A stretch of DNA of 64,000 nt from Escherichia phage vB_EcoS_HASG4. Under the pieces are notes generated by a model that did no database searches, had not been told where the DNA came from, and saw only the letters and a program-made list of their open reading frames with translations. Location: the sequence record NC_100331.1; one strand, 5' to 3'. Position 1 is the stretch's first letter. Every line of letters begins with the position of its first letter. The position numbers were made by a program, and so were the translations under genes. This document shows positions 5,100-5,677 of this stretch, piece after piece.

Positions 5100-5618
5100 T
5101 TAGAAATTTAGCTTCATAGCAAGAAAATTTTTCAAGTTTTCGGTAGACATCTCATCCACATCTACGGGAGAAACAAATCCATTTAATTGTCTAGCAAACT
5201 TTTCACCAGCAGGATCATTGTCCCCAACAGCTACCAATTTAAAAGGTAGTAATTTCAGTTGCTTTAATAACGCTTTTCCTGGAGAAGAACCCAACATTGC
5301 CAGGGCTGGATAACCAGCATTATGTAACGCAACTGCCTTAAATACAGATTCAGCAATCAATACTACTTTTTCATCTCCATTGAGAGTTTCTAGTCCCCAT
5401 ACACACTGGGTAGTAGAATAAGTAAAATATTTAGCTTCAAAGGGGCACTTACCATGACCTTTTGGAGCAGAAGGATTATAAGTTTGATAGCCCCTCAACA
5501 TCCCAGAGAAGTCATACAACGGGACTGTTAGCCATCCTTCCGGACTTAACCAGCAATGATATTTATCTGTATCAAATCCTCTAGATAAGAGGTGCTGTGT
5601 TAGCTCATCAACATTCAT
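5100..5618 (-). CDS. Toprim-domain protein (primase-like catalytic core only)
   Basis: VLIAESVFKA...VAVGDNDPAGEKFA matches the Toprim E...DxD signature; start set at ATG 5616-5618 with RBS GAGAGGAA, promoter at 5649-5677. Confidence 0.6.
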   Translation of the reverse strand: MNVDELTQHLLSRGFDTDKYHCWLSPEGWLTVPLYDFSGMLRGYQTYNPSAPKGHGKCPFEAKYFTYSTTQCVWGLETLNGDEKVVLIAESVFKAVALHNAGYPALAMLGSSPGKALLKQLKLLPFKLVAVGDNDPAGEKFARQLNGFVSPVDVDEMSTENLKNFLAMKLNF

Positions 5619-5648
5619 ATTTGGTTCCTCTCTCAAATTTATAGATAT

Positions 5649-5677
5649 ATTATACAGAGAATTTAGCATTCAAGCAA
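5649..5677 (-). promoter_or_regulatory. early promoter (TTGCTT-N17-TATAAT on minus strand)
   Basis: Plus strand ATTATA at 5649-5654 and AAGCAA at 5672-5677. Confidence 0.55.

Follow-up and report, generated by a model that had tools for sequence, protein, structure and literature searches.

A retron anti-defense gene in the tRNA-rich region of a T5-like phage and the predicted primase-type fold of its product

The rad gene and its product

We analyzed a 64,000-nucleotide stretch of Escherichia phage vB_EcoS_HASG4 (NC_100331.1), referred to here as the window, and focused on a small minus-strand gene at 5100–5618 that, judged by its sequence, is almost certainly rad (retron anti-defense). The window is that of a T5-like phage. 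The 1.2 kb surrounding the gene are 100% identical to Escherichia phage vB_EcoS_EASG3 and share 95–98% identity with T5, with BF23, and with numerous genomes of Tequintavirus and Epseptimavirus. The gene corresponds to ORF75 (Rad) of phage ΦSP15 and to T5.076 (YP_006904) of T5. In record AY587007 the orthologue is an unnumbered 'DNA primase' coding sequence (CDS) between ORF070 and ORF072, that is, ORF071, and T5 ORF071 is equated with Rad in the 2023 BF23 genome paper.

The original prediction for this locus, made from the DNA letters, described a 173-residue protein at 5100–5677. A minus-strand open reading frame (ORF) does end at 5100, but the CDS at 5100–5618 encodes 172 amino acids, and position 5677 is the first base of a -35 hexamer and is not coding. 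The longest minus-strand ORF (5100–5669) would give 189 residues. Its ATG, at 5669, falls between the two hexamers (-35 and -10) of the rad promoter, all homologues compared start at the downstream methionine, and a ribosome-binding site (GAGAGAGG, 5634–5627) is placed 8 nt ahead of the ATG at 5618. The T5 annotation likewise shows promoter P15a at the homologous site and a CDS of 519 nt. For these reasons we take the protein to be 172 residues long. The literature describes ΦSP15 Rad in its 189-residue form, the first 17 codons of which lie inside the promoter; the homologues and the ribosome-binding site favour 172. The early promoter and ribosome-binding site together occupy 5627–5677 on the minus strand and were identified by reading the sequence, with an A/T-rich upstream element, a -35 hexamer TTGCTT (5677–5672), a 17-nt spacer, and a -10 hexamer TATAAT (5654–5649). 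A consensus promoter scan missed this promoter, whose T5-type -35 hexamer has only three of six consensus matches.

The 189-residue ORF is identical to ΦSP15 ORF75 (BBJ33849.1) at 187 of 189 positions, with one substitution inside the 172-residue core, and the core matches T5 YP_006904 at 168 of 172 positions (4 substitutions). The ΦSP15 gene (E0157_075 in the phage record, a 189-residue ORF immediately upstream of tRNA-Ser) shares its genomic position, promoter, and downstream tRNA-Ser with the gene in the window. All five residues that were mutated in the preprint describing Rad (R13, P33, I88, D135, and E156) are present at the same numbers of the 172-residue CDS, and R13, D135, and E156 are invariant within the Rad clade.

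Rad is therefore not a new find in the window; its description, its name, and the experiments on it date from 2023–2024. The preprint of Azam et al. (2023, doi 10.1101/2023.03.15.532788) identified ΦSP15 ORF75 as the determinant, described it as a 189-residue protein 'with primase/helicase and TOPRIM/RNase domain', and presented Rad as the first known phage route to retron evasion. In that work ORF75 rescues T5n and SP15m, both deletion mutants, from retrons Ec67, Ec78, and Ec83, rescues lambda-vir from Ec48 and Se72, and is impaired in anti-retron activity by R13E, P33T, I88T, D135H, and E156H; the homologue from Proteus phage Privateer also blocks retrons. The preprint alone further reports that Rad expression lowers the multicopy single-stranded DNA (msDNA) as well as the msr-msd noncoding RNA (ncRNA) but does not lower the reverse transcriptase (RT) or effector transcripts. 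The peer-reviewed account names ORF75 as the determinant for evasion of Eco2 (Ec67) and Eco7 (Ec78) (Nat Commun 2024, PMC11555353). To this published picture we add the fold of the whole core, two active-site subtypes, split genes in jumbo phages, and a recurrent neighbourhood of Ser and Tyr tRNAs.

Predicted fold, active site, and family

The original prediction called the protein Toprim-only. Our modelling instead predicts that Rad is a whole miniature DnaG/T7-type primase RNA-polymerase domain, comprising an N-terminal subdomain and a Toprim domain. An AlphaFold2 model computed from 12 family members is confident, with a mean predicted local distance difference test score (pLDDT) of 92.3 and a predicted template modelling score (pTM) of 0.88, and it shows the two-part arrangement of DnaG-type RNA-polymerase domains, Toprim included. 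Foldseek comparison with viral models returned DnaG-like primases only. A family profile searched against the PDB also reached only primases (DnaG and T4 gp61), weakly (E ~0.05), and the profile alignment to E. coli DnaG puts E90 on the Glu of EGYMD and D133/D135 on DGD. Searched as a single sequence, Rad gave spurious xylanase matches only in the PDB; the primases were reached only by the family profile. At the level of phage protein families, PHROG 849 matches residues 3–168, and PHROG 47, the family of the window's real primase, matches residues 11–147. The size of Rad is close to that of the T7 gp4 core.

The N-terminal subdomain (residues 1–75; 5394–5618, minus strand) contains H9-L10-x-x-R13, G43-Y-Q-x-Y47, and K63-Y64-F-T66, which resemble primase motifs II/III. 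The Toprim domain (residues ~80–160; 5139–5381, minus strand), recognized by both Pfam and the family profile, contains E90 within the motif ESVFK, D133-N-D135, and D153-V-D155-E156. Its match to Pfam Toprim_2 (PF13155) scores 24.3 bits against a gathering threshold of 22.1 (E=4e-5). The Pfam scan of Rad returned only Toprim-family matches and no Zn_ribbon_DnaG. The protein contains three cysteines and ends about 12 residues past the Toprim domain, leaving no helicase-binding domain. The presence of the Toprim glutamate and DxD motif, and the lack of a zinc finger and helicase-interaction domain, were thus correctly anticipated by the original prediction.

Conservation was counted over 133 aligned family representatives at 29–98% identity. 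E90 is retained in 132 of these (99%), D135 in 126 (95%), and D133 in 116 (87%). G43, Y64, and G75 are conserved in all 133, Y47 and F93 in 98%, R13 in 97%, and D153 in 91%; a CxxC-type zinc motif occurs in none. Within the clade at 39–98% identity, six acidic residues (E90, D133, D135, D153, D155, and E156) are invariant. The catalytic positions are not substituted in the homologues and the fold includes a Toprim domain, which answers both refuting conditions set out with the original prediction. On this pattern the metal ligands of Rad are under strong selection. Where canonical motif IV has its second acidic residue, the Rad clade carries Lys94, and 69 of the 133 wider relatives keep Asp there.

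Position 94 covaries with position 155 (codons 5338–5336 and 5155–5153 in the window). When position 94 is Lys or Arg (E[GS][VI]FK), residue 155 is acidic (D-x-D-E) in 52 of 54 relatives; when it is Asp or Glu, as in the canonical primase motif EGxFD, residue 155 is Gly in 53 of 74 (Fisher p ~2e-26, without correction for phylogeny). The family thus splits into two active-site subtypes, here called K-type and D-type. They may mean that one metal ligand has moved, or no more than that there are two clades. All homologues inspected at at least 38% identity are K-type, including those of T5/SP15 and Privateer, which are strongly anti-retron in the preprint.

A HMMER search of 1.84 billion representatives (clusters at 50% identity) found 440 clusters with a cut-off of E≤1e-3, of which 247 also pass E≤1e-10, and nearly all members are stand-alone proteins of 160–200 residues. 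By tblastn, Rad occurs in 483 phage records that include T5-likes, Kagunavirus, Proteus phage Privateer, Providencia PSTCR5, jumbo phages of Erwinia, Klebsiella, and Serratia, and phages of Vibrio and Shewanella. A scan of 185,579 prokaryotic species, one genome each, gave a single match, on a 1.7-kb contig of a metagenome-assembled genome; its pattern was the ESVFK-type motif, which D-type relatives could escape. The family therefore seems essentially confined to phages. A few relatives are fused to GNAT and Arr-type ADP-ribosyltransferase domains, to ParB_N, or to a cytidylyltransferase-like domain (P0111, P0071, and P0089), and these architectures resemble polyvalent conflict proteins. A 4090-residue candidate (P0072) was rejected as a homologue, being a false positive caused by leucine-rich repeats.

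In the Erwinia and Klebsiella jumbo phages that we read, the Rad homologue is carried by two ORFs in different frames, split at or near the boundary between the N-terminal subdomain and the Toprim domain. The two ORFs overlap in Erwinia phage Alexandra (L005, 3989–4502), where the second starts with GTG at 'VFLTES', and split homologues also occur at L044 and at L064/L071 (Klebsiella phage FBKp24, 3995–4496). In the other jumbo-phage records listed (Erwinia, Serratia, and Klebsiella) the tblastn match falls in two pieces. The gene is intact in L033 and in Salmonella phage Arash. The split suggests that the protein consists of two chains or that its translation involves a programmed +1 frameshift. 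A metagenomic contig (L037, 6001–6502) has a frameshift elsewhere in the homologue, after about residue 49, which may be an assembly error.

The tRNA-rich neighbourhood and the accessory status of rad

The rad gene sits in a tRNA-rich early region in which ARAGORN finds 14 tRNAs within the first 9.3 kb of the window and Rfam adds one more. As originally predicted, the gene lies in a tRNA cluster. A tRNA-Ser(GCU) gene (4990–5078, minus strand; ARAGORN and Rfam) begins 21 nt downstream of rad, and is followed by the additional Rfam tRNA (4909–4983, minus strand; 40.3 bits, missed by ARAGORN), annotated in T5 as tRNA-Ile2 (CAU) and in other records as 'Met'. A second sigma-70-type promoter (TTGCTA-17-TATAAT; 5094–5122, minus strand), found by the promoter scan and equivalent to P15b of T5, overlaps the 3' end of rad and drives these downstream tRNAs.

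Other elements linked to retron evasion lie nearby. A long-arm tRNA-Tyr(GUA) gene (3221–3308, minus strand) was detected by ARAGORN and missed by Rfam, and it is part of the dispensable, tRNA-rich anti-defence region that also holds rad. In ΦSP15 and T5 it is tRNA-Tyr that cancels retron Eco7 (Ec78) (Azam et al. preprint, doi 10.1101/2023.03.15.532788; PMC11555353). The sequence of the window's tRNA-Tyr differs substantially from that of ΦSP15 (L067, 6482–6556), despite 94–100% identity of the flanking protein genes. Of two small minus-strand ORFs, the one at 3437–3712 is 94% identical to ΦSP15 ORF71 and the one at 3803–4009 is 100% identical to ORF72. Small ORFs of ΦSP15 have been implicated against retron Ec83, with the text and figure legend naming different pairs, ORF71/72 and ORF72/73 (doi 10.1101/2023.03.15.532788). 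Together, rad, tRNA-Tyr, and the ORF71 and ORF72 counterparts form a compact anti-retron island.

The association with these tRNAs recurs outside the T5-likes. In Arash-like phages of 172–180 kb, an unrelated lineage, the Rad homologue lies in a tRNA cluster between tRNA-Ser(GCU) and tRNA-Tyr(GUA), the same two species that flank rad in T5-likes. The homologue of Arash itself (L069, 2421–3877; similarly L033, L037, L038, and L061) has 172 residues and 41% identity. In Klebsiella jumbo phage FBKp24 the homologue lies 2 kb from the sole tRNA cluster, the last gene of which is tRNA-Ser(GCU). The association is genuine without being general, as at 27 of 34 non-T5 viral loci there is no tRNA within 6 kb. 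The rad-adjacent tRNA-Ser(GCU) genes of four lineages, when aligned, are ordinary, divergent tRNAs with no common oddity. Because tRNA-Tyr and tRNA-Ser are the reported targets of type I-A retron effectors (doi 10.1101/2023.03.15.532788; PMC12475279), the linkage more plausibly reflects counter-defence genes that travel together than a function in tRNA processing.

Other neighbours of the homologues vary. A gene for an SNF2-type helicase adjoins the homologue in Kagunavirus XY1 (L003, 3577–5513) and in FBKp24 (L071, 5590–7584), which are unrelated lineages, and in Kagunavirus the stop and start codons of the two genes overlap. The homologues of Kagunavirus and Privateer are embedded in modules for replication or nucleotide metabolism. 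In Vibrio phage F97 (L070, 2703–4537) the gene for a D-type relative with 30% identity and the motif EGVWD overlaps a tRNA nucleotidyltransferase gene at the latter's 3' end, and the same is seen in Shewanella phage 1/40 (H67).

As the original prediction stated, the window also encodes a complete DnaG-type primase (38254–39144, plus strand). It has 296 residues, with the CHC2 zinc ribbon (Zn_ribbon_DnaG), DNAG_N, and Toprim by Pfam. This primase and Rad both match PHROG 47 'DNA primase' and Pfam Toprim_2, and their motifs are collinear over about 130 residues, but they share only 23% identity (pairwise E=0.054), and a profile comparison aligns only the Toprim part (E=0.057). Because the identity is this low and the profile alignment is limited to Toprim, Rad is distinct from the window's primase and not a recent duplicate of it. 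A full primase is encoded in addition to Rad in each lineage whose context was read: the T5-likes, Privateer (a T7-like primase-helicase), and Kagunavirus (a 752-residue helicase-primase). The rad region is absent from the viable laboratory stocks T5n, SP15m, and T5-MSU and from the 2023 BF23 genome (doi 10.1101/2023.03.15.532788; PMC12475279; BF23 paper). Since these lineages also encode a real primase and the deletion stocks are viable, a replication role for rad is disfavoured, and with high confidence we regard it as an accessory anti-retron gene rather than a replication primase. The near-confinement of the family to phages, the fusions resembling conflict proteins, and the early promoter of the gene also speak for this accessory status. 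The 'DNA primase' label that rad widely carries in databases is misleading for annotation.

The rad orthologue is present, with 95.8% nucleotide identity, in a BF23 fragment deposited in 2004 (AJ604530.1), and ORF071–075 are reported missing from the BF23 genome of 2023. BF23 laboratory stocks therefore differ, and the region has been repeatedly lost.

Divergent from rad are a gene at 5825–6877 (plus strand; T5.077) for a 350-residue protein that is rich in Gly, Gln, and Ala, includes an acidic run, and has no Pfam match, and a gene at 6899–7315 (plus strand; T5.078) for a 138-residue Gln-rich protein, whose AY587007 label, 'cAMP-dependent protein kinase catalytic subunit', is implausible. Further along, ARAGORN reports a tRNA-Ser with anticodon ACT at 9198–9271 (minus strand; Rfam 36.8 bits). 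By coordinate offset to T5 it falls in the stable RNA 'RNAX', a pseudo-tRNA in AY587007.

Mechanism and comparison with known systems

Taken as a whole, the best explanation of these observations, to which we assign a probability of roughly 0.7, is that Rad is an early, dispensable counter-defence protein that turns the groove of a primase core and the chemistry of a Toprim domain against retrons. Rad would have kept the acidic metal centre (E90, D133, D135, D153, D155, and E156) and lost the zinc-dependent template-recognition and helicase-binding parts. The groove inherited from primases would recognize a structure common to retrons, namely the folded ncRNA, the single-stranded DNA, or the short RNA:DNA hybrid. 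Phosphodiester chemistry at the Toprim site, dependent on Mg or Mn, would then destroy this structure or block its maturation, and the retron would be unable to assemble its sensor-toxin complex. That the reaction is catalytic cleavage of the ncRNA or msDNA is a narrower claim, for which we judge the odds to be about even. The best evidence for it is that six acidic residues are conserved in a fast-evolving accessory protein. The original prediction of a stand-alone Toprim nuclease survives in part, since nuclease-type action is the leading hypothesis in view of the loss of ncRNA and msDNA in the preprint; the proposed likeness to OLD or RNase M5 does not extend to the fold.

Several observations weigh against this explanation. 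Our literature search turned up no report of an in vitro activity of Rad, nuclease activity included. The single mutations D135H and E156H only partly reduce activity, which is unusual for a strictly catalytic residue, and E90 was not among the residues mutated (doi 10.1101/2023.03.15.532788). Overexpression could have masked the defects of D135H and E156H. The claim that Rad degrades ncRNA was dropped on publication, where the mechanism was stated as not determinable (PMC11555353). T5-ATCC, which has ORF75 and the full tRNA set, does not escape the type I-A retron FORC82, in which the HNH effector depletes tRNA-Ser (PMC12475279), so retron inhibition by ORF75 is not universal. Lastly, Rad has a polymerase fold and the fully conserved basic/aromatic primase motif K/R63-Y64, and because of these an activity that uses nucleoside triphosphates (NTPs) is conceivable. 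Candidate mechanisms are cleavage, binding, and NTP use.

A more elaborate version, which we regard as speculative and doubtful in its entirety, has three parts. The primase core would have been converted to a hydrolase with a relocated metal-site charge (positions 94 and 155). The gene would travel as a portable anti-retron cassette with tRNA-Ser(GCU) and tRNA-Tyr(GUA) across T5-likes, Arash-like myoviruses, and Klebsiella jumbo phages. For the jumbo phages of Erwinia and Klebsiella that were read, the product would be an enzyme of two chains, divided exactly where the subdomains meet.

We ranked four rivals to this explanation: a non-catalytic blocker, a tRNA-directed nuclease, an auxiliary primase, and the T5 nickase. 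The first would have the Rad groove block reverse transcription by clamping the ncRNA, the msDNA, or the initiation complex of RT and ncRNA, the fall in ncRNA and msDNA being secondary decay of unprotected RNA. DnaG-type cores do bind single-stranded DNA and RNA:DNA hybrids. The partial effects of single D135H and E156H, together with the finding that double mutants at any pair of sites abolish function (doi 10.1101/2023.03.15.532788), look more like loss of fold or binding, and the published account leaves room for such a mechanism by declaring it undetermined (PMC11555353). A binder needs no near-invariant metal ligands, however, and the invariance of the six acidic residues in the clade, with E90 nearly universal in the family, makes this rival unlikely, though it is the strongest of the four.

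The second rival holds that the native target of Rad is phage tRNA transcripts, or tRNA repair and processing, and that the anti-retron effect is a by-product of an endonuclease for structured RNA. The position of the gene in tRNA clusters of three unrelated lineages (T5-likes, Arash-like phages, and FBKp24) would fit, as would the tRNA nucleotidyltransferase gene abutting the distant Vibrio and Shewanella relatives and the one fusion to a cytidylyltransferase-like domain. The linkage is explained by tRNA-rich regions being anti-defence islands in their own right, and most non-T5 loci have no tRNA close by. Moreover, Rad lowers msDNA in cells that contain neither phage nor phage tRNAs (doi 10.1101/2023.03.15.532788). 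The Privateer protein, encoded in a replication or nucleotide-metabolism module, still blocks retrons. Rad also blocks Ec48 and Se72, whose effectors are to our knowledge not tRNA nucleases. We consider this rival improbable, and the tRNA-processing role raised in the original prediction gives way to the anti-retron role that has been demonstrated.

More improbable still is a second, zinc-finger-less primase or primase subunit in phage replication, with the zinc domain supplied in trans or with template-independent synthesis of oligoribonucleotides. The whole-protein fold match to primase polymerase domains, the primase-like motifs, the database label, and the translational coupling to the SNF2 helicase in Kagunavirus all speak for it; they are opposed by the absence of a zinc-binding domain from all 133 relatives, the full primase in each lineage read, the dispensability of the gene in several laboratory stocks and its location outside the T5 replication module, and the replacement of the second acidic residue of motif IV by Lys in the Rad clade.

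A site-specific nickase behind the single-strand interruptions of T5 virion DNA is a role that Toprim domains could fill, since they can nick DNA (OLD, GajA), and we know of no identification of the T5 nicking enzyme, nor did a literature search find one; on the other side, Kagunavirus, Privateer, and the jumbo phages with Rad homologues are not known to us to carry such nicks. We give this role, and with it the DNA nicking of the original prediction, next to no credence, as BF23 virion DNA still yields nick-derived fragments although the 2023 genome is reported without ORF071–075 (BF23 paper).

Among known systems, Rad resembles the DnaG-type cores (Aquifex 2AU3, B. subtilis 5GUJ, E. coli 1DD9, T7 gp4 1NUI, and Twinkle), with which it shares the Toprim Glu and DxD, a motif III of the KY type, and a motif II of the G-aromatic type. 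It differs from DnaG-type primases in lacking the zinc-binding domain and a C-terminal helical or helicase-binding domain, in being about half the size of the bacterial core, in having ESVFK rather than EGxxD as motif IV, and in being dispensable and coexisting with a real primase. Identity to the solved cores is 17–25%. RNase M5 (6TG6), a stand-alone Toprim ribonuclease, and 2I5R, a small Toprim protein, have the Toprim fold and the conserved Glu and DxD in common with Rad, and RNase M5 provides a precedent for a Toprim domain that cuts structured RNA. The C-terminal rRNA/uL18-binding domain that accompanies Toprim in RNase M5 (rnmV model) was not found in Rad, and the N-terminal ABC-type ATPase domain of the OLD family is likewise missing from the 172-residue protein.

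NCBIfam gave no matches to Rad beyond weak DnaG-type ones. One of the weak matches is to TIGR00646, which covers truncated DnaG paralogues of the MG010 type (residues 23–149, E=3e-4); at 20 bits against a cut-off of 261 we claim no membership. We take MG010 to be a zinc-finger-less DnaG paralogue. The sole PADLOC match, again without a claim of membership, is to PDLC03800 (residues 84–145, E=9e-7), an RT-associated DnaG-like protein of DRT defence. The MG010-type and DRT DnaG-like proteins are bacterial, and their partners differ from those of Rad. Because Rad matches PDLC03800, a defence-side relative of the same Toprim type exists.

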